The notes below the pieces were generated by a model. The model had not been told where the DNA came from, did not search any database, and saw only the letters and a program-made list of their open reading frames with translations. Source: Candidatus Hydrogenedens sp. (lineage in GTDB: Bacteria; Hydrogenedentota; Hydrogenedentia; Hydrogenedentales; Hydrogenedentaceae). From it: a stretch of DNA of 64,000 nt. How positions within the stretch are numbered: position 1 is the stretch's first letter; the number at the start of each line of letters is the position of its first letter. The stretch is taken from NCBI GenBank assembly GCA_049968235.1, contig JBMFRC010000003.1, forward strand, positions 64,001 to 128,000, written 5' to 3'. This document shows, in pieces, positions 1 through 27,299 of this stretch. The position numbers and the translations under genes are program-made.

Positions 1-204
1 TAATCCGATAATAAAGCCCAGAATATAGTTTGTGGCACGTGTCGGGTCATCCAGTTGATTTATTCCCTTTTCGATTGCGGGCTGGCTATAAAAAAAACCA
101 GCAATGAGTATCATGAGCATCCCATAGCCAATAATCAGTCCTGTTAATGTACGGAACCAGTAGCGTCGGGTGATAATCCATCCACGTATTATCTCTGCTT
201 TCAT
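1..204 (-). CDS. ABC-2 family transporter permease, N-terminal part (gene runs off window start)
   Basis: ATG at 204 on minus strand; translation MKAEIIRGWIITRRYWFRTLTGLIIGYGMLMILIAGFFYSQP... is hydrophobic; immediately downstream of ABC ATPase in same orientation; weak SD. Confidence 0.4.
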   Translation of the reverse strand, partial: MKAEIIRGWIITRRYWFRTLTGLIIGYGMLMILIAGFFYSQPAIEKGINQLDDPTRATNYILGFIIGL

Positions 205-229
205 AATGAGTAGAAAACCAAGCATGATA

Positions 230-1309
230 TTATTCCTGTTCTTGTGAATTTATCGCATCAAATACGGGTTTTTCACCTGTAAGTTGTAAAAAGACATATT
301 CCAGATTTACCTGTTTTTGTTGTATGGAGCGTAATTGATATTTTTTCCTACGAAGTGTTTCAAATAGAAGATATAATGCTTCTGACCGTTCTTCATACGG
401 TTCCGGTACCTGCACCGTAATTGTAGGACCATCCGCCGTCAGGTCTGATTGGAGAAAAATAATCTGCGGACCAAGAGCATCGAGGTCCCCATCTGCCAGG
501 TTACGGTCTAATCGCAGGGAAAAGATTTGTTTTGAAAATAGTTCCAGCAGTTCAGAAGTAGGTTTGCAGGTAATAAGTTTTCCCTTGTTAATAATTCCAA
601 TACGATCACAGAGTTCTTGAGCCACATGCATATCATGAGTAGTAACCAGCACAGAACGACCATATTTTCGGGTCAGTTCCAGAATTTTGTCTTTAATGGA
701 GCGACTGCTTTGCACATCCAGACCCGTAGTAGGTTCATCTAACAGAATAATTTTGGGGTCAGCAATCAGAGCGATGCATATCGCTAATTTTTGCTTCTGT
801 CCTCGTGATAGTTTGCGAACTTCTATGTCTTTTTTGTCATTCAACCCGATAAAATCAAGTAGTTGATGGGCTCTTTCTTTGAGGATTTTTCCGCGAATAT
901 TTCGCAAATTTCCATAATAATAAAGATTTTCAAGAGGTGTCAGGGGCCAGATACTGGTTCGTGTTCCTTCAAGCACAACGCCGATTTGTGAAAGGACCTG
1001 TTTCCGTTTCTTTTCTACATTCATCCCATCCACATAAACTGTTCCACTATCCGGTTTTACTAGTCCTGAAATCATTTTTACCGTGGTTGTTTTTCCAGCA
1101 CCATTGGGACCCAATAATCCCATAATTTCACCGGGCATAATACCAAAAGTAATTTTATCTGCTGCACATGCTTCTTTCTTTTTTATTAAACTCCTCTTAC
1201 CTGTTTCCTCGTCTTTATAAAGAAAGTGAGATGTGTGAAAGGTCTTTGATACCGCATCAAGATAAACCGTATATTTTTTTATATTTGTATTCAATTCATT
1301 TTTATACAT
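230..1309 (-). CDS. ABC transporter ATP-binding protein with C-terminal extension
   Basis: Walker A GPNGAGKTT, ABC signature LSRGQKQKL, Walker B ILLDEPTTGLD; start overlaps stop of upstream CPBP gene (TAATG). Confidence 0.9.
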   Translation of the reverse strand: MYKNELNTNIKKYTVYLDAVSKTFHTSHFLYKDEETGKRSLIKKKEACAADKITFGIMPGEIMGLLGPNGAGKTTTVKMISGLVKPDSGTVYVDGMNVEKKRKQVLSQIGVVLEGTRTSIWPLTPLENLYYYGNLRNIRGKILKERAHQLLDFIGLNDKKDIEVRKLSRGQKQKLAICIALIADPKIILLDEPTTGLDVQSSRSIKDKILELTRKYGRSVLVTTHDMHVAQELCDRIGIINKGKLITCKPTSELLELFSKQIFSLRLDRNLADGDLDALGPQIIFLQSDLTADGPTITVQVPEPYEERSEALYLLFETLRRKKYQLRSIQQKQVNLEYVFLQLTGEKPVFDAINSQEQE

Positions 1310-2007
1310 TATGAAACTCCACCTCCTTCAAATAATGTCCTTTCTAATTCGTCCATACATTTATCGGGGTCATTTATCTCCTGCAACTTGTCTAAATACT
1401 CAAGGTAATTGCTTTCCATATTACGAATGAAATGTAGAATTGTTACAAAACCCAGGTCATTTGTAACATGGTAAAGAATGCTTATGATAATAGAGAATAT
1501 CAAAAATTCGATGTTCTGGCGTAGTTGATTTTGAAAAATATGTTCATGCACCAATGTAAAAGTGAGGGATACGATAAGAATCGCAATAGCGGGACTTCCC
1601 ATTATCCCTATCAGAATAGGTTGGATTGTAGCCCGATAAATAATCTCCTCTGTAAGTGCAACTGTAAAAGTCTTTCCTAATAACACCGGCGAAAGAAATG
1701 AGAAACGGAACACCTGTAAAAAGGATAGAAATTGATTTTTTACAATAGAATTAAAGCCTACTGTAATAAGAAATCCGATGGTATATAAAATATGTCCCAA
1801 TACTAATCCCACTATCCAATTAGGCACGAAAAATAAATTTCTGGGGAGTATTTGCTGGATAAATAGATAAAAAATCGCACAAATAAGTAAAAGGGATTGA
1901 ATAATTTTTACAATTGTAGTTAATTTCTGAATCTGGAAAAAATTGCGACATAATTCCAGCAGGAAATTCAAGGAGAAGAGGACTACAAGAATTATTTTGA
2001 TATTCAC
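1309..2007 (-). CDS. CPBP (CAAX/Abi) family intramembrane metalloprotease
   Basis: Multi-TM protein with EExxxR motif (TEEIIYR) and His motifs (LVHEHIF) typical of CPBP; 4-nt ATGA overlap with upstream GNAT. Confidence 0.7.
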   Translation of the reverse strand: MNIKIILVVLFSLNFLLELCRNFFQIQKLTTIVKIIQSLLLICAIFYLFIQQILPRNLFFVPNWIVGLVLGHILYTIGFLITVGFNSIVKNQFLSFLQVFRFSFLSPVLLGKTFTVALTEEIIYRATIQPILIGIMGSPAIAILIVSLTFTLVHEHIFQNQLRQNIEFLIFSIIISILYHVTNDLGFVTILHFIRNMESNYLEYLDKLQEINDPDKCMDELERTLFEGGGVS

Positions 2008-2624
2008 GAAGACTTCTCCAGATAATTCTTTATGCTTTCAGCCATTTTTTGTAGTGTAATTTCCCTTGTATGTTCGGTATTTTTTTCACGCCAGATTTGA
2101 AACTCCTGTTTTAATAATCCGTAAACATAAACATCATGCCAGACCCCGTTTCGTGTAATGTGTTCCTTTAGTGTGAGTTCTCGTTGGGCACCGAGAAATT
2201 CCAATAATTTCCATGATGGTTTATTGAAAGCATAAATAATAGCGGTAATGCGGTGTAAATTGAGTTCATCAAACGCATATTCCAATGCACGAAAAACATT
2301 AATTCCTGTCGTCAAATGATTCCGATGTTCCGGTGCTATATATACATCCAGATTGCAGGAACGATTCCGCCAGCTGATATTTTGTAGTGAAATCATTCCT
2401 AAAGGACCCTCCGGTGAATCAACGATGAAATATACACCAGCAGGGATAGGACTACCTGTATTTTTACTTAAAAACCCGATAATCTGTTCGCGAATAGTTC
2501 TTGGAGAACGGGCAGGGTCACCATACAGGAAGTATTGAAAATCTTCATCTTCCATCCAGCGGATAAGTGTGTCGAGGTCATCGCGGTCTGCTCTGCGGAT
2601 AAAAGATTTTGTAATAATACTCAC
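2004..2624 (-). CDS. GNAT family N-acetyltransferase (RimJ/RimL-like)
   Basis: RimL-like pattern ...ITAIIYAFNKPSWKLLEFLGAQRELTLKEHITRNGVWHDVYVYGLL; co-oriented in operon. Confidence 0.7.
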   Translation of the reverse strand: MSIITKSFIRRADRDDLDTLIRWMEDEDFQYFLYGDPARSPRTIREQIIGFLSKNTGSPIPAGVYFIVDSPEGPLGMISLQNISWRNRSCNLDVYIAPEHRNHLTTGINVFRALEYAFDELNLHRITAIIYAFNKPSWKLLEFLGAQRELTLKEHITRNGVWHDVYVYGLLKQEFQIWREKNTEHTREITLQKMAESIKNYLEKSS

Positions 2625-2637
2625 GAAAAACCCCTTC

Positions 2638-3183
2638 TTATTTCAATTCGACCGACAAAGTATTACTATTTTGAAATTTTGCCCATGTCTCAAGATTATG
2701 CCATTTCCCACAGGTGAATAGCACCTCTCGCATACATCCTTCACATTGATATGAATGATTTAATAGAAAGTTTCGCAGTCTTTCTTCCACATCCAGACAG
2801 GTTGTCATTAATTTTCTTAAATGGAGTTGTTGAAATGCCCGCACCTCAATAAATTCTAATGCTTCACCAATCAGAGCGGATTCATTATCGTAGGTCTCAT
2901 TTTCAAACAGGAGCATCATCTCCCCAAAAAGTGCCTCCGCATTTATCCCTTTTAGGATAACAAAGCCGGAAATATCTCCAATTTTATTTTCAACAGCATA
3001 AAAGGACTGAGCAGTATCTTTATGTTGAAGAAGTTCCTCCAACTCACTTAGATTGGGCATGAGCGGTTCTCGTTTCGTATCCAGCAGGGTGGCAAAGATG
3101 GGTTTGTGCAGGTAAAAACGGAGCAGTTCTTTTGCATCAAAACGGTCCGCATTGCGAATAGTCGCATAAGTCTTTTTTATCAT
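2638..3183 (-). CDS. GNAT-like N-acetyltransferase (divergent second copy)
   Basis: C-terminal half ...LRKLMTTCLDVEERLRNFLLNHSYQCEGCMREVLFTCGKWHNLETWA resembles RimL-type GNAT C-terminus; 13 nt from next GNAT. Confidence 0.5.
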   Translation of the reverse strand: MIKKTYATIRNADRFDAKELLRFYLHKPIFATLLDTKREPLMPNLSELEELLQHKDTAQSFYAVENKIGDISGFVILKGINAEALFGEMMLLFENETYDNESALIGEALEFIEVRAFQQLHLRKLMTTCLDVEERLRNFLLNHSYQCEGCMREVLFTCGKWHNLETWAKFQNSNTLSVELK

Positions 3184-3280
3184 ATAGAAAGGTTATATCC
3201 CGCAGTTAAAATTACACGCTTCCATGCCCTAAAATGGCATGAAGACAACTGAAAAAATCCCTGCTTATAATAACGAAAAG

Positions 3281-3400
3281 TTAAAAGCCAATTTCGTTTT
3301 TCTTTTCGTAGCGGAAATCCTGCCAGGCTCGCCACACCGCATTAAAAAAGTTTGTAAAGGCATCAGCTTTCCGTAATGTCAACTTTTGAATGTGCTTCAT
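3281..3400 (-). CDS. small peptide P1 (39 aa) MKHIQKLTLRKADAFTNFFNAVWRAWQDFRYEKKNEIGF; member of tandem paralogous peptide family
   Basis: Not in ORF track (<60 aa). Found by manual translation of minus strand; N-terminus MKHIQKLT matches the conserved motif of the three neighbouring small ORFs. Confidence 0.4.
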   Translation of the reverse strand: MKHIQKLTLRKADAFTNFFNAVWRAWQDFRYEKKNEIGF

Positions 3401-3451
3401 GTTCTTATTTCCCATATTACAAGTTTTAGGTGTTAATATATAAAAATTTAT

Positions 3452-3652
3452 TTAACTGCTTGAAGAGGTTGTTGTAGTAGTTGTTGTCCCGGTGCTCGGC
3501 AATGGAGACTCCGGGTCCTTATTCTTGAAAACAGGAATAAAAATTTTTATTATATCTTCAATAAATTTTATTATATTAACTGTGGTATAGGGGAAATCAC
3601 TCGCGGATAGGGGTTGAGTTATCTTCTGAATATGTATCTTATTACGCACCAT
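3452..3652 (-). CDS. small peptide P2 (66 aa from ATG 3652; track ORF uses GTG at 3661) ending ...STGTTTTTTTSSSS
   Basis: Contains KIHIQKIT near the N-terminus, which aligns with MKHIQKLT/MKHIRRLT/MKRIQCIT; hydrophobic middle; 11-residue Thr/Ser C-tail. Confidence 0.45.
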   Translation of the reverse strand: MVRNKIHIQKITQPLSASDFPYTTVNIIKFIEDIIKIFIPVFKNKDPESPLPSTGTTTTTTTSSSS

Positions 3653-3884
3653 ACTTCCCACTTCCGTCCAATGTTGAGGTATCTTCTGTATTTCTCGTTT
3701 CGAGTAAAGTTCGAACTGCTGTCAATATCTGAAGAAAAATTGTCAAAATAACATCAATCGTAACCGCTTGAACAGGTCTACTGTATGTCTGTCTTTTAAT
3801 ATGTTTCATAAAAATACCTTTAAACTATAAATCTATTATACTAAATATAAAGTATTTTACAAACTACAAAGATTCTGTATCTTA

Positions 3885-4070
3885 CTAACTGGTCGTAGTA
3901 TTTGTTGTTTCCTGAGGTTTTTTTACTTCCGCTAAAGGCAAGAAGAAATTTGTAAGCACAGAAAGCAAAAAACAAAGAAATGCCTGATAATCACTTGTGA
4001 TATTTGTGCAAAAGTTAGAACTTTGCTGTGCCCTTGATGGTTTAACAGTGATACATTGGATTCTCTTCAT
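3885..4070 (-). CDS. small peptide P3 (61 aa) MKRIQCITVKPSRAQ...FLCFLLSVLTNFFLPLAEVKKPQETTNTTTS
   Basis: SD GGAG 9 nt upstream; N-terminus is homologous to P4 (MKRIQCITVKPSRAQ vs MKHIRRLTATLHKAQ); Thr-rich C-tail. Confidence 0.45.
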   Translation of the reverse strand: MKRIQCITVKPSRAQQSSNFCTNITSDYQAFLCFLLSVLTNFFLPLAEVKKPQETTNTTTS

Positions 4071-4094
4071 TATTTCTATCTCCTTTTATTTAGA

Positions 4095-4250
4095 CTACGA
4101 AGAAGAGGAGGTGCCTCCTTCTTTAGCGACAAAAGCCTGAGCGACGACAGATAAAATATTCGCAATCAGGGTTAATATCTGTCCAATACTCAAAGTTGTC
4201 TCTATTTGTGCTTTGTGTAATGTGGCGGTTAATCTTCTTATATGTTTCAT
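4095..4250 (-). CDS. small peptide P4 (51 aa) MKHIRRLTATLHKAQIETTLSIGQILTLIANILSVVAQAFVAKEGGTSSSS
   Basis: Manual translation; lies out of frame inside track ORF 4123..4338; SD GGAG upstream; amphipathic/hydrophobic middle; SSSS tail; paralogous N-terminus. Confidence 0.45.
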   Translation of the reverse strand: MKHIRRLTATLHKAQIETTLSIGQILTLIANILSVVAQAFVAKEGGTSSSS

Positions 4251-4475
4251 TTTCCAACTCCCGTATATTGGTTATAATATTATCTAATATAGAATATTGT
4301 TTACATTCTATTTCATTACAGATTTCTTTTAATATCATATATTAATTTAATACCAAATTACATAAAAAAGTTTTCCCTTTCCACCTCATAATAACACGGA
4401 ATTATAAGATATATTTTACAAAATAAGAAGCAATATAGGAAATATTTAACAGAATTTAAGTATATCAATAACTTT

Positions 4476-7001
4476 TTATTTCTTTAATCGAGCACTGCTC
4501 ATCATAAATAACAATATACCGATAAATATAAAATCAAACAGATATTTCAATAAGGAATTGTTGTTTAAGGATTTGTTTATACAGCCACAAACATTTGTTG
4601 CTCCAGTTTCTTCCTTACTGATATTTCCATCACCATTCGTATCTATTTGATTAAATATTTCATGGGTTAACCATGGATACACAATACTTAACTCATCCCA
4701 ACTTAACATATTATCGCCGTTCGCATCAAACAATGAAAACCGTTTCTTGAGTATATTCTTTAATTCCTTTAATGTCATTGGACATGTACCCGCAGAAACC
4801 GTAATATTAACTACTGATTCCGGCTCTACCTGAGTTCCTGCGGGTGGATATTGAGTTATGACATTGCCTGTAGCTATGTCATTACTACACTCCTGGGTAA
4901 CATCCCCAACCTTCAGGTTTGCAGATTTTATAACATTTTTTGCAGAATCCTGGTTCATACCAACTACATCCGGAACCACATTTAATCCGACATACTGAGA
5001 CACTAATTGTGGATAAGATTTATTTTCTTTTATATACCATACTTTTTCAAAATCCCAACCATTAAAAGTGGCTTGCTGTTTCATTTTTGCCGTTGTTTTA
5101 CCCGTGCCACCTGCAGAATTTTTTTGTCCGGAAGTCTCTGTGTCCCAATATGAATTACTTACCGTACCGGAATGGTTATATCCCAAAAGCCCCCCAATAT
5201 ACGAAGCCCCGGAAGAATTGGACACAGAACCTGCTGAATAACAATAATTTATTGTGCCTCTATAATTTCCACCTACCAGTCCACCACTGTATAGAACTCC
5301 TGAAACAGACCCTATGGCATAACAGTTGCTAATTTCATTATTATTCTCACCTACCAGACCACCAACATTTATATGTCCCTGAGTTGTAACCTCCGCACAA
5401 CAACTACTTGCCTTACCCGAATTTGAACCTATTGCCCCACCAATAGAACTATATCCTGTTACAGACCCCTCTGCATGACAACCACTTACTGTACCATAAT
5501 TCTGACCTGCTAATATGCCTATAGAAGAAATATTCGTATCCCCGGAAACAGAACCTTTTGCATGGCAATTACTCACAGTACCATAATTTCGTCCTATTAA
5601 TATACCGACGGAAGTGGAAGTAACAGAAAGAGTATTTGTATGTCCTGATACGGAACCTTCTACATAACAATTACTTACTGTGCCATAATTTTGTCCTGCC
5701 AATATACCCACGAAAGAAGAACCCGCGACAATAGCATTTTCTATACTTAAATTTTTAACCACACCTTTCATATCAATATAGCCAAAGAAACCAACATAGT
5801 TTTCAGAAGGACGATTTATCGTTAGACCAACTATTTTATGCCCTTTACCATCAAAATTGCCTTTGAATGGATGCTCTTTATCTGCCCCTATAGGAGGCAA
5901 ATCTATTCCTGCAACATTAATATCATTAATTAATTCATAATCGCCATTCAAAGGATAAATGTCCCCTATCTTTTGCAATTCCCCGACATTATCTACAAGG
6001 ATAGTCCCCGGATTAATATTTCGCAGGAAAGGATATTGATATGGATAGGAATACACATCACTGCTGACATAGATTCTCCAAACTGTTTCAAAATCCCAGC
6101 CCACATAAGTGTTCTTTAATTTCATTTCTTCCGCTGTTTTCCCTGTTCCCCCATCAGAAGCACTCTGTCCGGATGCTATTATGTCCCAGTAACAATTACT
6201 AACATAGCCACTTTCTTTCTTTGCAATAAGCCCGCCTGTTATATGTTCTTCCGTTGAAGTCGCTGTTGACCGAACAGTTCCTCGACAATAACAATTAGTT
6301 ACACCATTTTCATTGCTGTTATTGTAGCCAATAAGTCCCGCAACATAATTCTTCCCTGTAATAGAACTTGAACTGTAACTATTATCAACAGAGCCTATAT
6401 TTTCACCTATCAATCCGCCAACACGATTTATTCCTGTTATAGATGCAAGATTATAACACTGACTTACTGTTCCCAAATTTTGACCCGTAATACCGCCAAC
6501 ATAATCCGTTCCTTTTACCGTTCCGCTGTTAACACAACTCTGTAATACTACACCGAAATTCCGACCGACAATCCCACCAACATTTGAATTACCTTTAATT
6601 GATATATTTTCTAAACGGAGATTATGGACTTTCCCACCAGCATCAACATATCCAAATAATCCAATATCATCCTCATCTCCCCGCGATATAACAAGACCTT
6701 TTATCTTATATCCTTTGCCATTAAAATCACCTGTAAAAGGACTATTAAATGTTCCTATGGGTTTAAACCCCGCTTTATCATTCCAGGTCGATGTGCTACT
6801 TGCGTCAATATCTTCTGTCAATTCATATTCCGCACTTAACGGGTAATTTGCATCATTACCTATTTTCTGTAATTCCTCAATACTGTTTATCTGGATTACA
6901 GTTGCACCATAACTGTTTCCGAAATAGAAACTCATGCAAAAAATAAAAAATAAACAAAAGGGGAAATATATGGTCTTTTTTGAAAAACTTCGATTATTCA
7001 T
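4476..7001 (-). CDS. large secreted surface protein: duplicated N-terminal module + GLUG-type (VGG[IL]xGxNxGx[IV]xNCY) repeats + PASTA domain + two dockerin/EF-hand-like Ca-binding loops + C-terminal TM anchor
   Basis: Signal peptide MNNRSFSKKTIYFPFCLFFIFCMSFYFGNSYG with strong SD (AAGGAG) before ATG at 7001; repeats GGIVGRNFGVV..C, VGGLIGENIGSV; PASTA-like VVPDVVGMNQDSAKNVIKSANLKVGDVTQE; DANGDNMLSWDEL and DTNGDGNISKEE; C-terminal FDFIFIGILLFMMSSARLKK. Confidence 0.7.
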   Translation of the reverse strand: MNNRSFSKKTIYFPFCLFFIFCMSFYFGNSYGATVIQINSIEELQKIGNDANYPLSAEYELTEDIDASSTSTWNDKAGFKPIGTFNSPFTGDFNGKGYKIKGLVISRGDEDDIGLFGYVDAGGKVHNLRLENISIKGNSNVGGIVGRNFGVVLQSCVNSGTVKGTDYVGGITGQNLGTVSQCYNLASITGINRVGGLIGENIGSVDNSYSSSSITGKNYVAGLIGYNNSNENGVTNCYCRGTVRSTATSTEEHITGGLIAKKESGYVSNCYWDIIASGQSASDGGTGKTAEEMKLKNTYVGWDFETVWRIYVSSDVYSYPYQYPFLRNINPGTILVDNVGELQKIGDIYPLNGDYELINDINVAGIDLPPIGADKEHPFKGNFDGKGHKIVGLTINRPSENYVGFFGYIDMKGVVKNLSIENAIVAGSSFVGILAGQNYGTVSNCYVEGSVSGHTNTLSVTSTSVGILIGRNYGTVSNCHAKGSVSGDTNISSIGILAGQNYGTVSGCHAEGSVTGYSSIGGAIGSNSGKASSCCAEVTTQGHINVGGLVGENNNEISNCYAIGSVSGVLYSGGLVGGNYRGTINYCYSAGSVSNSSGASYIGGLLGYNHSGTVSNSYWDTETSGQKNSAGGTGKTTAKMKQQATFNGWDFEKVWYIKENKSYPQLVSQYVGLNVVPDVVGMNQDSAKNVIKSANLKVGDVTQECSNDIATGNVITQYPPAGTQVEPESVVNITVSAGTCPMTLKELKNILKKRFSLFDANGDNMLSWDELSIVYPWLTHEIFNQIDTNGDGNISKEETGATNVCGCINKSLNNNSLLKYLFDFIFIGILLFMMSSARLKK

Positions 7002-7534
7002 CAAACAGCTCCTTGTTATTAATAAAATTACATGCAATAAACGCAATCAAATACATAGCTCTATTTCGCAATATATCTCTTTTAATTTATAAAATATCTT
7101 GTTGCCTCGGACTATCTTTGTATTTTAATAAGAAAGAGGCAATCCGCTTAAAATTTAAAGAAATACTATCATAGTATTATTGAATAATATAATTCTATTT
7201 TCAACATTTTAGAGTGATAATGAAATGTTAAAACAAACAAAATATTAACGGCATCTTTTGTGTCTCCGCTGACTGAATATAAAAAGATGAGCAAATAAGA
7301 AAAAGTTGTATTGTTTATAAGATAAAATCATTACGCATGTTATAAACGGTATTGTTATTTTATAATATAATTCCCGCTGTTCGTTGATAATACTATGATT
7401 ATTTCATACATGCTATTACCATACGGTCATTGGGAAAGATAGTTCAGGTTGCAATTTGATAATCACATAGAATTGAAATTACACTTATTACAGATTTTTT
7501 GTGTTCTGGAAAGTTAAATATAAGGAATGGGAAA

Positions 7535-8578
7535 ATGAAAAATGTATTGTTGCACATCTTCTTTATCTTGATTTTATCCTGTATTGCGACAGCACAAAAT
7601 ACGGATGTAGGAAATGCATCAGGCACAACACCTCCAGGGTCAGAAACGGAATTAAAAATAGGGTTAATAGGACTGGATACTTCCCATGTCATTGCTTTTA
7701 CGCGATTATTTAATGACCCTAATAATCCGAAACATATTCCCGGTGCCAGAGTAACATTGGGGTATCGTGGAGGCAGTCCGGATTTAGAAGCGAGTTATAC
7801 ACGTGTGGATGGCTTTACGGAACGATTAAAAAAAGAATATGGCGTAGAAATTGTAAATACTATTGAAGAACTCTGTTCTCGTGTGGATGCTGTTATGTTG
7901 ACCAGTGTTGACGGTAGGGTGCATTTAGAACAAGTAAAACCTGTGTTTCAAGCCAAAAAACGGGTATTCATTGATAAACCATTGGCAGGTTCTTTGATAG
8001 ATGTCATAAAAATTGCACGGTTAGCGAAAGAAAATGATATTCCATGGTTTTCCAGTTCCTCCTATCGCTATTATTCCAGTTTAACAAAGTTACGCCAGCA
8101 GGACGTGGGTCCCATTCATACAGTTATTTCGTATGGACCCTGCCATTTAGAACCTCATCACCCTGATTTGTTCTGGTATGGTATACACCCTGCTGAAGCA
8201 TTGTACACCGTCATGGGAAGAGGTTGTGAAACCGTATCCCGTGTTAGCACAGCCGATACCGATGTGGTTACAGGTGTGTGGAAAGATGGGCGTGTTGGTA
8301 TTCTCGTTGGACTGAGAAAAGGACCTTTACCTCATCAGGTTATTGCTTTCGGTGAGAATGGAACTGCCTATCAGGAAGAAGGGGGCGATTATGCGGAATT
8401 GGCACAGGAAGTAATTAAATTTTTTAAATCAGGGGTGCCTCCTATCACACCGAAAGAAACCATCGAAATTTTTGCTTTCCTGGAATCTGCAGATGAAAGT
8501 AAACGACAAGAAGGCAAACCAGTACGATTGGAAGAAGTTATTGCAAATGCGGAAAAACAAATCGCCGAAGGCAAATAA
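7535..8578 (+). CDS. Gfo/Idh/MocA family oxidoreductase, secreted
   Basis: Signal peptide MKNVLLHIFFILILSCIATAQ after SD AGGAA; Rossmann KIGLIGLDTSHVIAF; RVFIDKPLA motif. Confidence 0.8.
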   Translation: MKNVLLHIFFILILSCIATAQNTDVGNASGTTPPGSETELKIGLIGLDTSHVIAFTRLFNDPNNPKHIPGARVTLGYRGGSPDLEASYTRVDGFTERLKKEYGVEIVNTIEELCSRVDAVMLTSVDGRVHLEQVKPVFQAKKRVFIDKPLAGSLIDVIKIARLAKENDIPWFSSSSYRYYSSLTKLRQQDVGPIHTVISYGPCHLEPHHPDLFWYGIHPAEALYTVMGRGCETVSRVSTADTDVVTGVWKDGRVGILVGLRKGPLPHQVIAFGENGTAYQEEGGDYAELAQEVIKFFKSGVPPITPKETIEIFAFLESADESKRQEGKPVRLEEVIANAEKQIAEGK

Positions 8579-8620: not shown

Positions 8621-10987
8621 ATGTTTTTCCACCGTCATTGGGTAATTATCTGTGTAGGGTTTGTATGTGGTGCTTTCTTTGCCAAAATACAATGGATAAC
8701 ATGGGCGTTATTACCTGTTATTATCAGTATCATTGTCATTTTTCTTTTAATAAATTATCAGAAGAGAATACGATATGCAGAAAATATCGGGATTTTTCTG
8801 TTTTCCTTCATTATTGGTTCGTTATCTTATTTATTACACCCCTATCCTCAGGAAGGGGATGATTTTTTCGTATGGTTGAGACAGCAACAACCTAATATAT
8901 ATGTTGAAGTTGAAGGATATGTAACAGAAAATACGCTTTTTGACCCTATCAATAAACAAATTCGCTTTGTGATTAATATCTCAAAGGTAAAAGAAAAAAA
9001 TACATGGAAAAATATAAAGGGGAAAGCCCTTGTTTTATACAAAGATGCTCAATCTCCCATCTATACACATACCCGGCTTCGGTTATCCGGGAAAACTTCT
9101 CTATATTTAAGTCCAGTAAATGAAATATTAAGTGATTATGAAACCTATCTTCGTTCCCATAGAATTTATTCATTAATTTTTGTATATGCACCGCAAATAC
9201 AAACAATACATACTTACACATTTTCTCCATTTTATCACATATCCCGATTGCAACAATATTTTTATGAACGAATAATTCAATATACACCTACTTCCATCAG
9301 GGATATGACAAGAGCTATTTGGTTGGGAGACCGAAGTGGTCTGGATTATAAGGAAGAACAGAACTTTATGCTCACAGGAACCATACATATCATTGCTATT
9401 TCAGGACTGCATATCGGTCTGGTATTCTGGTTTACTCAGGTTGCGATACGGGCAATTTTCAAAACAAGGAGGCGATTGGCAGATATACCTGCCCTATTGT
9501 TATGTGTTTTTTATGCACTGATAAGTGGTGCTCATGGCTCTTCTTTGAGAGCAATCCTTATGCTGTTAATTTATGAGTTGTATGTGTTTAGTAGAAGAAA
9601 TGCGGATATTCTAACAACTCTTTCTATAACAGCAACACTACTTTTTCTCTGGAGCACAGATCTCATCTGGGATATAGGGACAGAAATGTCCATATTAGCA
9701 GTTGTTTCCATCATATTATTCAACGAACCCATCTCAAAACTATTACGCATCTTCCCATGGACAATCCGTTCCTATTTTTCGGCGATTATATCTGCACAGA
9801 TACTTTTACTGCCTTTACTTATTACAATAAACTCACAAATAAATGCTTTAAACCCTGTATATAATCTTTTTGTTGTTCCGTCAATTACACTTTATTTAAT
9901 GACCAGCATTTGTGGATTGGCTTTTATTTTTATTCCATTTTTACCGACTTTATTTTTCTACGCAAGTGGAGTATTTTTAATCTTCATTCAATCGTTATGT
10001 AAATGGGGTAGTTCTTTTTCCTATACTTTGTTTGCCATTCCCCATCTATCCTATTTCGGAATCTTCCTTTACTTTATCCTTTGCATGTTCCTTTATCGCT
10101 GGCTTATTAAACAAAAACGAAAAGAGTTTTTGATATTCATTGCAGGATGTGTCGTGTTATTCTTTTTCTGGAGGGGTATCCCGTTTTATAGAGAAACGAC
10201 TGTGCATATACTCGATGTAGGACATGGTGATGCTATACTTATCTCAACCGCAGAGAAAGAGAATATCCTTGTGGACGGGGGAACCCCATTTATGGGAGAA
10301 CGAGTTGTGCTTCCTTTTCTGTTTGCAAAAGGAATACGGACATTGGATTATGTCATCGCAACACATGCAGACGAAGACCATATAGGGGGGCTATTTAACG
10401 TTATAGACAAACTGCGTGTTCGACATTTTATTTATGGTGAAGGGTTTTTAAACACCGAACCCGGTAGTAAGATTATAAAAAAAGCCATGTCCCGCGGTAT
10501 TAACCTTATAAAAACTGAAAAAGGACAACAAATAAAATTGAGAAAGAGTTTTTTAAATGTTCTTTATGCGGGTAGAACTTACTACAATGAGACCAACGAA
10601 AATTCACTTGTCTTGAAATTTGTAAATTATCGTTTTTCCATATTGCTAACAGGGGATTTTCCTGCCCACTTGACAAATAAGGAACTTGCCTCTGCCGATT
10701 GTTCTACAACAATCATAAAAATAGCCCATCATGGTTTGAAGAATTCACTAAATCAGGATTTATTGGAGAAATCACACCCCGAGATTGCCGTTGTCTCTGT
10801 TAATGAATTCCAACGCAATTGGGGTGTGCGGAAGGAAATTAAAGACCTGCTACAACAATACCAAATTCCACTCTGGCGAACAGATTACTATGGAGGAATT
10901 ATTATACGAACGGATGGGAACAAAATAAATCTCTATGGGGCAAGACAGAAAAAAGGATACCTTCTCAGAAAAGAAACTTGTTTTTAA
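8621..10987 (+). CDS. comEC: DNA internalization competence protein ComEC/Rec2
   Basis: Multi-TM N-terminus; competence domain LTGTIHIIAISGLHIGLV; C-terminal metallo-beta-lactamase HILDVGHGDAILI...THADEDHIGG. Confidence 0.85.
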   Translation: MFFHRHWVIICVGFVCGAFFAKIQWITWALLPVIISIIVIFLLINYQKRIRYAENIGIFLFSFIIGSLSYLLHPYPQEGDDFFVWLRQQQPNIYVEVEGYVTENTLFDPINKQIRFVINISKVKEKNTWKNIKGKALVLYKDAQSPIYTHTRLRLSGKTSLYLSPVNEILSDYETYLRSHRIYSLIFVYAPQIQTIHTYTFSPFYHISRLQQYFYERIIQYTPTSIRDMTRAIWLGDRSGLDYKEEQNFMLTGTIHIIAISGLHIGLVFWFTQVAIRAIFKTRRRLADIPALLLCVFYALISGAHGSSLRAILMLLIYELYVFSRRNADILTTLSITATLLFLWSTDLIWDIGTEMSILAVVSIILFNEPISKLLRIFPWTIRSYFSAIISAQILLLPLLITINSQINALNPVYNLFVVPSITLYLMTSICGLAFIFIPFLPTLFFYASGVFLIFIQSLCKWGSSFSYTLFAIPHLSYFGIFLYFILCMFLYRWLIKQKRKEFLIFIAGCVVLFFFWRGIPFYRETTVHILDVGHGDAILISTAEKENILVDGGTPFMGERVVLPFLFAKGIRTLDYVIATHADEDHIGGLFNVIDKLRVRHFIYGEGFLNTEPGSKIIKKAMSRGINLIKTEKGQQIKLRKSFLNVLYAGRTYYNETNENSLVLKFVNYRFSILLTGDFPAHLTNKELASADCSTTIIKIAHHGLKNSLNQDLLEKSHPEIAVVSVNEFQRNWGVRKEIKDLLQQYQIPLWRTDYYGGIIIRTDGNKINLYGARQKKGYLLRKETCF

Positions 10988-27137: not shown

Positions 27138-27213
<76 letters not shown>

Positions 27214-27223
27214 ATTTTTTTAT

Positions 27224-27299
27224 AGGGCCGTTAGCTTAGCTGGTAGAGCAGGGGACTCTTAATCCCAAGGTCGCAGGTTCGATTCCTGCACGGCCCACC
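27224..27299 (+). tRNA. tRNA-Lys (anticodon CTT)
   Basis: Near-identical backbone to E. coli tRNA-Lys as recalled (GGGTCGTTAGCTCAGTTGGTAGAGCAG...GGTCGCAGGTTCGAATCCTGC...CCACCA); anticodon loop CTCTTAA. Confidence 0.85.

Follow-up and report, generated by a model that had tools for sequence, protein, structure and literature searches.

A 64,000-nt stretch of DNA (hereafter, the window) from a metagenome-assembled Candidatus Hydrogenedens sp. genome, phylum Hydrogenedentota, contains at positions 3281–4250 of the minus strand an array of five short genes (P4, P3, P2b, P2, and P1) whose products share an N-terminal leader. The five genes are arranged co-transcriptionally with genes for two GNAT-fold proteins (GNAT1 and GNAT2), a CPBP protease, an ABC transporter ATPase, a permease, and a 613-aa protein. 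We interpret the array, with a probability of roughly 0.6, as encoding the precursors of a leader-dependent maturation and export system resembling those for peptides that are ribosomally synthesized and then post-translationally modified (RiPPs). This interpretation is based on the co-conservation of the GNAT/CPBP/ABC neighbourhood with the peptide genes and on the presence, in the last gene of the operon, of a RiPP recognition element (RRE) domain of the type found in SCIFF/sactipeptide maturases.

The first-pass annotation of this region had already proposed a family of RiPP precursors or bacteriocin-like peptides, a proposal that both lines of evidence support. Its statement that no described family has this signature also stands: none of the five peptides gave a meaningful match when scanned against Pfam and NCBIfam (no NCBIfam match at E ≤ 1), and literature searches found no description of this peptide system. 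The peptide family and the system are undescribed and follow RiPP logic. This logic is here combined with a precursor family not described before, a GNAT-fused RRE scaffold whose radical-SAM core is dead as judged from its sequence, the presence of three GNAT folds in one system, and five co-occurring, phylum-wide cores.

Peptide genes: leaders, cores, and conservation

The five precursor genes are as follows, in the direction of transcription.
4095–4250, minus strand: P4 precursor gene, 51 aa; leader MKHIRRLTATLHKA, core QIETTLSIGQILTLIANILSVVAQAFVAKE, and tail GGTSSSS
3885–4070, minus strand: P3 precursor gene, 61 aa; leader MKRIQCITVKPSRA and tail TTNTTTS
3642–3809, minus strand: P2b precursor gene, 55 aa; leader MKHIKRQTYSRPVQA, core VTIDVILTIFLQILTAVRTLLETRNTE, and tail DTSTLDGSGKYGA
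3452–3652, minus strand: P2 precursor gene, 66 aa; extended leader MVRNKIHIQKITQPLSA, core SDFPYTTVNIIKFIEDIIKIFIPVFKNKDPE, and tail SPLPSTGTTTTTTTSSSS
3281–3400, minus strand: P1 precursor gene, 39 aa; leader MKHIQKLTLRKA, aromatic amphipathic core DAFTNFFNAVWRAWQDFRYEKKNE, and 3-aa tail IGF

A tandem array of four paralogous ORFs had been proposed at first, and these four are read as described, but P2b, which opens with MKHIKRQTYSRPVQAVTIDV (MKHIKRQTY...; full translation, MKHIKRQTYSRPVQAVTIDVILTIFLQILTAVRTLLETRNTEDTSTLDGSGKYGA), had been overlooked. The stop codon of P2b and the start codon of P2 overlap (ATGGTGCGTAA). The other four ORFs start with MKHIRRLT (P4), MKRIQCIT (P3), MVRNKIHIQKIT (P2), and MKHIQKLT (P1). 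Alternative starts exist for P2 (GTG at 3661, giving 69 aa instead of the 66 aa from ATG) and for P1 (an upstream ATG at 3415, giving 44 aa), and GGGAG and AGGAG are found upstream of P4 (5' of its ATG) and P3, respectively. P1, which is always the final peptide gene and adjoins GNAT1, is called neither in the NCBI assemblies of the source organism nor in several relatives. Two NCBI assemblies contain this region at 99.98–100% identity. P4 and P2b are called in NCBI assemblies, so that of the two genes once noted as absent from the ORF track (P1 and P4) only P1 is also uncalled by NCBI.

The leaders are 12–17 aa long and basic (net charge, +3 to +4), with the consensus M-K-H-[ILV]-[KR]-x-[ILV]-[ST]-x-x-P-x-[KR]-A; an example is MKHIKKLTLRKA. 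When the window is translated in all six frames, the pattern K[HR]I[QRK].[LIQ]T is found 4 times, far beyond the 0.055 occurrences expected from first-order Markov simulations. All 4 lie inside the 1-kb array and share a strand, and each stands at residue 2 of an ORF that opens with ATG. No window ORF outside the array begins with the leader. The shared N-terminal motif described in the first-pass annotation is therefore well founded, as is its displacement in P2, which reflects a short N-terminal extension. The K-H-I..I-T element is kept in such P2 extensions (MKTNFNKHIRKIT), where it is not N-terminal, and the leader is also kept in P1 variants with 10–25 residues inserted before the core, both of which indicate that it is a recognition element and not start-codon context. 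Sec and lipoprotein signals were not found in the leaders, which contain no hydrophobic stretch, and the leaders end in (K/R)-A without a double glycine, the operon's ATPase being of the DrrA type without a C39 peptidase domain. Leaders of the Sec, type IV pilin, and double-glycine types were all rejected on sequence grounds. A sequence search of the PDB with a leader-plus-core peptide gave no match and so did not recover any leader peptide in the CteB entries.

All five peptides follow a common plan, i.e. the basic leader, a helical hydrophobic or amphipathic core of ~24–40 aa, and a variable polar tail. The leader is common to all paralogues and lineages, and the cores belong to five or more types, so the conserved leader and separate core typical of RiPP precursors are both present. 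This plan emerges from alignments of 13–41 non-redundant members per group, together with 54 P1-family cluster representatives from an exhaustive search. Between the window peptides and their orthologues, the cores are the best-kept part and the tails (17–36% mean identity for all five peptides) the worst. The mean core and tail identities are 70 and 34%, respectively, for P1 (against 40 other sequences) and 61 and 36% for P3. The hypervariable core of the first-pass annotation thus applies to the differences between paralogues only, since the cores of orthologues are highly conserved. Neither did the view that the peptides are unrelated beyond the motif hold: a conserved Lys marks the end of the helix in all paralogues, and acidic or polar residues come after it (AKE, KKPQE, KNKDPE, EKKNE); Arg replaces this Lys in P2b of the Hydrogenedens clade. 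The P3 core contains two invariant Cys (NFCTNI.SDYQAFLCF...PLAE.KKPQE), and its AlphaFold2 model has a single helix (residues 27–49) with an unstructured leader and tail. Windows of 19 residues with Kyte–Doolittle hydrophobicity of 1.87–1.93 are present in P4, P3, and P2b, and the maximum for P1 is −0.5, which is too low for membrane spanning. The hydrophobic moment is highest in P2 (0.69), followed by P1 (0.61). The Ser/Thr-run tails of P4, P3, and P2 were described correctly at the outset; they are confined to the low-GC Hydrogenedens clade, and the tails of other clades are acidic or Gly-rich. The tail of P1 has 2–3 residues in most members.

The similarity between the paralogues at the DNA level was judged by a repeat scan and an ungapped leader comparison. 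A single direct repeat joins two gene starts: it is 18 nt long and spans the P4 and P2b start codons. Three further two-copy repeats of 17–25 nt resemble chance. A global nucleotide identity of ~0.75 between paralogues was discarded as inflated by lenient gap costs. Because the copies share only such short repeats, the array is not the product of recent duplication, in agreement with the low DNA identity between copies reported earlier.

A profile search identified 46 short proteins (39–70 aa) that fall into five orthologous groups corresponding to P4, P3, P2b, P2, and P1. P4-type sequences number 39 when made non-redundant (source copy included), P2b has the orthologues P0014, P0018, P0020, and P0022, and the P1 family comprises 54 representatives clustered at 50% identity, all of 35–87 aa, from 1.84 billion proteins searched. 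The ratio of nonsynonymous to synonymous substitution rates (dN/dS) for the five ORFs pooled is 0.076–0.084 against three relatives, at dS values of 0.67–1.5, and all five genes are under strong purifying selection. The individual ratios are 0.13–0.17 for P4 (against loci L040 and L013), 0.08 for P3, 0.15–0.19 for P2b (against L040, L013, and L005), 0.03–0.10 for P2, and 0.01–0.06 for P1, which is the most conserved of the five though unannotated in GenBank.

In ~45 genome and metagenome loci, the gene order is one to three P4-type genes, P3, P2b (in part of the loci), P2, P1, GNAT1, GNAT2, CPBP, ABC ATPase, permease, and the large protein. The co-occurrence of homologues with GNAT, CPBP, and ABC genes, named as a check in the first-pass annotation, was thus found in a shared order, and with the pooled dN/dS this fixed order bears out its description of an old, selected family. 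The order persists where GNAT2 identity falls to ~51% and includes GC-rich lineages. No fewer than 320 clusters of GNAT2 homologues score E < 1e-20, and the 120 listed are 50–97% identical. A contig search with GNAT1 returned 3 loci only, because the patterns derived for it were narrow, and this number is no measure of prevalence. Divergent lineages contain additional leader-bearing peptides with new cores, e.g. ...SGFFKDLFGG, and the best-populated arrays have six leader-bearing ORFs, with a maximum of seven.

Every named source of the system belongs to Hydrogenedentota, save one contig labelled archaeal. This contig (Ga0307380_10000020, 304 kb; P0115/L030) carries a complete system under the NCBI label 'Candidatus Bathyarchaeia archaeon', which is probably a binning error because all other named sources are Hydrogenedentota. 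In loci L026, L027, L030, L033, L041, and L054, an extra peptide, MKHIKKVTVA(K/R)A..W(D/E)..SGFFKDLFGG, is encoded ~100–200 nt upstream of the P1 gene, and the same lineages have the P1 variants in which a 10–25-aa spacer separates the leader from the ADAKTDF core.

Operon partners of the peptides

The 613-aa protein (P0169) is encoded after the permease, past the window start. Contig L059 matches window positions 1–2547 at 99.96% identity and then continues into the permease and P0169 genes, indicating that the P0169 gene belongs to the operon in the source organism. Its orthologues (596–683 aa, no Pfam match) are encoded by the last conserved gene of the operon. Residues 2–99 match residues 3–100 of CteB (PDB 5wgg), i.e. 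its N-terminal RRE (E = 1.9e-16), and a three-sequence profile of the large protein aligns to CteB residues 5–444 (E = 2.9e-26). The top NCBIfam matches are ScfB-related and SCIFF maturases and the SPASM domain, all far under the cut-offs (55–60 bits against TIGR03974, with a cut-off of 425). The AlphaFold2 model of P0169 (mean pLDDT, 71.8) has three strands followed by three helices at residues 7–73, and a Foldseek search with this model ranked CteB first (E = 2e-12, target TM 0.63), followed by TigE. A leader-binding RRE in a co-encoded protein is therefore predicted from the CteB match, the topology of the model, and the Foldseek ranking.

The CxxxCxxC radical-SAM motif is missing in 24 of 24 distinct full-length orthologues, which retain C-x2-C-W-A-x3-C-G-G-G, often without the fourth (last SPASM) Cys. 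By these signatures, and by the TIGR03974 scores, the radical-SAM core is dead and no active maturase of this type was detected in the large protein. The C-terminal ~160 residues adopt a GNAT fold, the third GNAT domain of the system; SpeG-type GNATs matched the C-terminal ~165 residues of P0169 in the Foldseek search. The closest intact homologues (P0180–P0182) exceed the TIGR03974 cut-off and are bona fide ScfB enzymes. Upstream of each stands a SCIFF gene (TIGR03973, 69 bits) whose product starts with MKKHI(I/L)T(M/I)VKPNLKR. This start and the array leader have K-H-I-x-x-Φ...P in common (Φ, hydrophobic), and it is plausible, from these sequence likenesses, that the leader and its reader descend from a SCIFF/ScfB pair. 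For the system as a whole, SCIFF/ScfB ancestry is probable.

The remaining operon genes within the window are as follows.
2638–3183, minus strand: GNAT1, 181 aa; Pfam Acetyltransf_4 (E = 1.4e-6); PDB profile matches to RimJ (3igr) and SpeG
2004–2624, minus strand: GNAT2, 206 aa; Acetyltransf_3 (RimJ/RimL/SpeG-like), very well conserved
1309–2007, minus strand: CPBP (Rce1-like, glutamic-type) intramembrane protease, 232 aa; Pfam PF02517 (E = 6.9e-11)
230–1309, minus strand: ABC transporter ATPase of the DrrA/ABC-2 type, 359 aa; Pfam ABC_tran (E = 4.5e-31), no C39 peptidase domain
1–225, minus strand: permease, first 75 of 279 codons, clipped by the window start; translation matches the L040 permease

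GNAT1, a distant paralogue of GNAT2 with 20% identity to it, is weakly conserved (31–55% identity to its orthologues in L003, L004, L008, and L011). The closest solved structures for both GNATs are SpeG/PaiA diamine acetyltransferases and RimJ/RimL N-terminal acetyltransferases, all of which are amine modifiers. The CPBP motifs EExxxR, FxxxH, and HxxxN are all present in 33 of 35 distinct orthologues, so the protease looks competent and active. The ATPase matches TIGR01188 (drrA) with E = 2e-71, under the cut-off, and the permease has a weak ABC2_membrane_3 match. With the CPBP protease, the ABC ATPase, and the permease, the operon thus appears to encode the dedicated protease and exporter expected of a RiPP system.

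Two further features were seen at the operon's end. The gene directly downstream of the RRE-GNAT gene in L059 (5590–6644) has faint matches to multihaem cytochromes (Cytochrome_C7, MtrC-like). In the GC-rich loci L011 and L012, the operon stops after the ABC ATPase gene and a HAD hydrolase gene follows on the opposite strand (10100–10945).

Proposed maturation scheme and alternatives

The closest known system is that of the SCIFF/ranthipeptides (TIGR03973 with ScfB/CteB, TIGR03974), which have been reviewed and are broadly conserved in Clostridia (PMC8172795). In common with the present system are a large operon protein homologous over the RRE, barrel, and SPASM regions, short precursors with a K-H-I...P leader start, and conservation throughout a whole lineage. 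The array peptides differ in lacking the Cys-rich core with six Cys and any TIGR03973 match (true SCIFF, 69 bits), and they comprise five helical cores instead of one. The large protein differs in the loss of CxxxCxxC and, often, the last SPASM Cys and in its fused GNAT domain, and the operon here adds two more GNATs, a CPBP protease, and an exporter of the ABC-2 type.

GNATs are frequent RiPP maturases, acylating Lys or Orn in selidamides (PMC8784127). As in the selidamides (KspN/PhaN), nostolysamides, lipolasso peptides, goadvionins, and N-acetylated microviridins, the GNAT genes here adjoin those for leader-bearing precursors; Lys residues near the core termini are acylated in selidamides (PMC8784127), and a conserved Lys ends each core helix here. 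As points of difference, neither an NHLP nor a Nif11 leader was recognized in the array peptides (no NCBIfam or Pfam match), and the GNATs are nearest to SpeG, RimJ, and RimL, have no canonical loop, and in one case are fused to a radical-SAM/RRE scaffold that appears dead.

In two-peptide bacteriocin systems, CPBP/Abi proteins confer immunity, and SagE acts in the streptolysin S system alongside SagGHI, an ABC-2 exporter. In Staphylococcus aureus, agr (AgrD peptide) quorum sensing is under the control of the CPBP/Abi peptidase MroQ (bioRxiv 10.1101/516906). The present operon resembles these systems in encoding a glutamic intramembrane protease with intact motifs beside small peptides and an ABC-2-type transporter, and differs in the absence of cyclodehydratase, AgrB, and double-glycine machinery. 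DrrA-type ABC-2 transporters export phenol-soluble modulins (PSMs), and the PSMs with their Pmt exporter, aureocin A70, and the Streptomyces chaplins likewise comprise several short amphipathic or hydrophobic helical paralogues with a DrrA-type exporter. In contrast to the array peptides, they are not known to have such a cleavable conserved leader, an RRE protein, or GNATs, and are confined to a genus or strain and not phylum-wide.

If the RiPP-like interpretation is right, the RRE of the 613-aa scaffold would bind the K-H-I..I-T leader of all five precursors and present the cores to the GNAT folds (its own domain, GNAT1, and GNAT2), possibly within one complex. The GNAT folds would install an amine-directed modification, for which the new N-terminus and the conserved helix-end Lys are candidate sites. 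The membrane CPBP protease would then cleave close to the conserved (K/R)-A junction to remove the leader, and possibly trim the polar tail as well, and the ABC-2 transporter would export the mature helical peptides or insert them into the membrane. Across the phylum, each of the five core types is strongly conserved and they invariably co-occur. We therefore expect the products to act jointly and to have a physiological role that is itself conserved, be it in the membrane, the envelope, or signalling, as suspected for SCIFF in Clostridia, and not to act as a strain-specific antibiotic.

A fuller scheme is offered tentatively, and we think it unlikely to hold as a whole. A dead maturase would persist as a scaffold that binds leaders and is joined to a GNAT, and with two further non-canonical GNATs it would put a novel modification on five co-evolving helical peptides; after CPBP cleavage and ABC-2 export, the peptides would either assemble into a hetero-oligomer of the membrane or envelope or serve as a signal, in both cases essential to the phylum's physiology, and the system would represent a new housekeeping class of RiPPs of SCIFF/ScfB descent.

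If the RiPP-like interpretation itself is correct, it defines a new RiPP-like family with unusual traits. A pseudoenzyme has been retained purely as a GNAT-fused RRE scaffold, which would clearly illustrate RiPP pathway evolution in which the chemistry is swapped and leader recognition kept, and a single leader serves at least five distinct, individually conserved cores that always travel together. The system would also be conserved across an uncultured phylum, unlike scattered antibiotic clusters, pointing to a physiological RiPP role such as that suspected for SCIFF in Clostridia. For annotators, the rule to be drawn concerns small genes of ~39–70 aa that gene callers miss, such as P1. The system is in addition a tractable target for heterologous expression, consisting of short peptides and four soluble or membrane proteins.

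Several observations weigh against the RiPP-like interpretation. GNAT2 has R-x-x-(L/M/V/W)-x-T in place of the SpeG-like S-G-K-G-Y-A, with the Gly residues of the acetyl-CoA loop replaced, and it has F or L instead of the Tyr found in 'IYE' of SpeG; in alignments inspected by eye, GNAT1 and the fused GNAT domain are also without the canonical acetyl-CoA loop. The GNAT fold is thus present in all three without the Q/R-x-x-G-x-G/A loop of catalytic members, and on these motifs the proteins may be non-catalytic or have another chemistry. The permease and RRE protein genes are not adjacent to the operon in L011 and L012, indicating that the RRE protein is not always encoded in cis. The SCIFF N-terminus resembles the array leader weakly: it scores ~4 bits against the leader scoring matrix, compared with a family median of 22.5, and is outscored by 1 of 445 background N-termini. 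Phylum-wide conservation and slow core evolution are unusual for secreted natural products. Finally, promoter and terminator scans were not clearly beyond chance (39 sigma-70-like matches in 1–7600, weakly above the 30.1 ± 5.7 found in shuffles).

Of the alternatives, the one that survives best, although we consider it improbable, is that the peptides are small membrane or envelope subunits of a conserved hetero-oligomeric complex and are not released, with the leader serving as a targeting or assembly tag and the enzymes as assembly factors. It shares its mechanism with the RiPP-like interpretation and differs in the fate of the products. A fixed stoichiometric set of five cores in fixed order, strongly conserved across lineages, would suit such a complex, as would the hydrophobic windows of P4, P3, and P2b and the restriction of named sources to Hydrogenedentota apart from the one probably misbinned contig. 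However, P1 is too weakly hydrophobic for a membrane span, the copy number of P4-type genes and the extra core types vary between lineages, and the combination of RRE, protease, and exporter is standard RiPP logic.

Less probable again is an unmodified multi-peptide locus for membrane-active toxins (class II-like or PSM-like), in which the ABC-2 transporter would export the peptides, the CPBP protein would confer Abi-type immunity, and the GNATs would have resistance or housekeeping functions. Such a locus would account for the amphipathic or hydrophobic helical cores and the non-canonical GNAT motifs, and both CPBP/Abi immunity and DrrA-type export of PSMs have precedents. It is contradicted by the lack of a double-glycine leader and a C39 peptidase domain, by the strict co-conservation of three GNAT domains and an RRE-bearing protein with the peptides, and by the wide conservation and dN/dS of ~0.08 on five fixed cores, which are unlike those of diversifying bacteriocins. 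A last explanation is that the intergenic region is merely AT-rich and its ORFs arise by chance, are non-coding, or resemble type I toxins, as might be suggested by the shortness of the ORFs, the low GC content, and the missing GenBank annotation of P1. It is effectively refuted by the motif excess, by the orthologues in ~45 loci including GC-rich lineages, and by the strong purifying selection. In addition, an Rfam scan found no RNA family in the array region.

Flanking sequences

The sequences directly upstream of the array are as follows.
4251–4475, minus strand: presumed operon promoter region, AT-rich (~24% GC in the composition profile), between the GLUG/PASTA gene and P4
4476–7046, minus strand: gene for a GLUG-repeat/PASTA/EF-hand protein, 856 aa, directly upstream of the array; C-terminal anchor hydrophobic, with basic residues at its end (LLFMMSSARLKK)

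The putative promoter region 4251–4475 has sigma-70-like matches. The 856-aa GLUG/PASTA/EF-hand gene is present in close relatives and was rejected as a part of the system, being not homologous to the upstream genes of other lineages. A conserved same-strand pair of genes, encoding a 78-aa protein and a protein of ~290 aa, lies directly upstream of the array in L003 (6580–7697) and L004 (6589–7700). The ~290-aa protein has an HxH..SDG N-terminus and is PHP-phosphoesterase-like by eye, with no Pfam match; only its gene was seen in L005 (3911–4783), and the pair is absent from the window.

Elsewhere in the window, two adjacent tRNA genes at 27139–27297 (plus strand) are the sole Rfam matches, and a gene at 8621–10987 on the plus strand, ~1.6 kb past the GLUG gene, encodes a competence protein of the ComEC/Rec2 type with Competence, DUF4131, and metallo-beta-lactamase domains.

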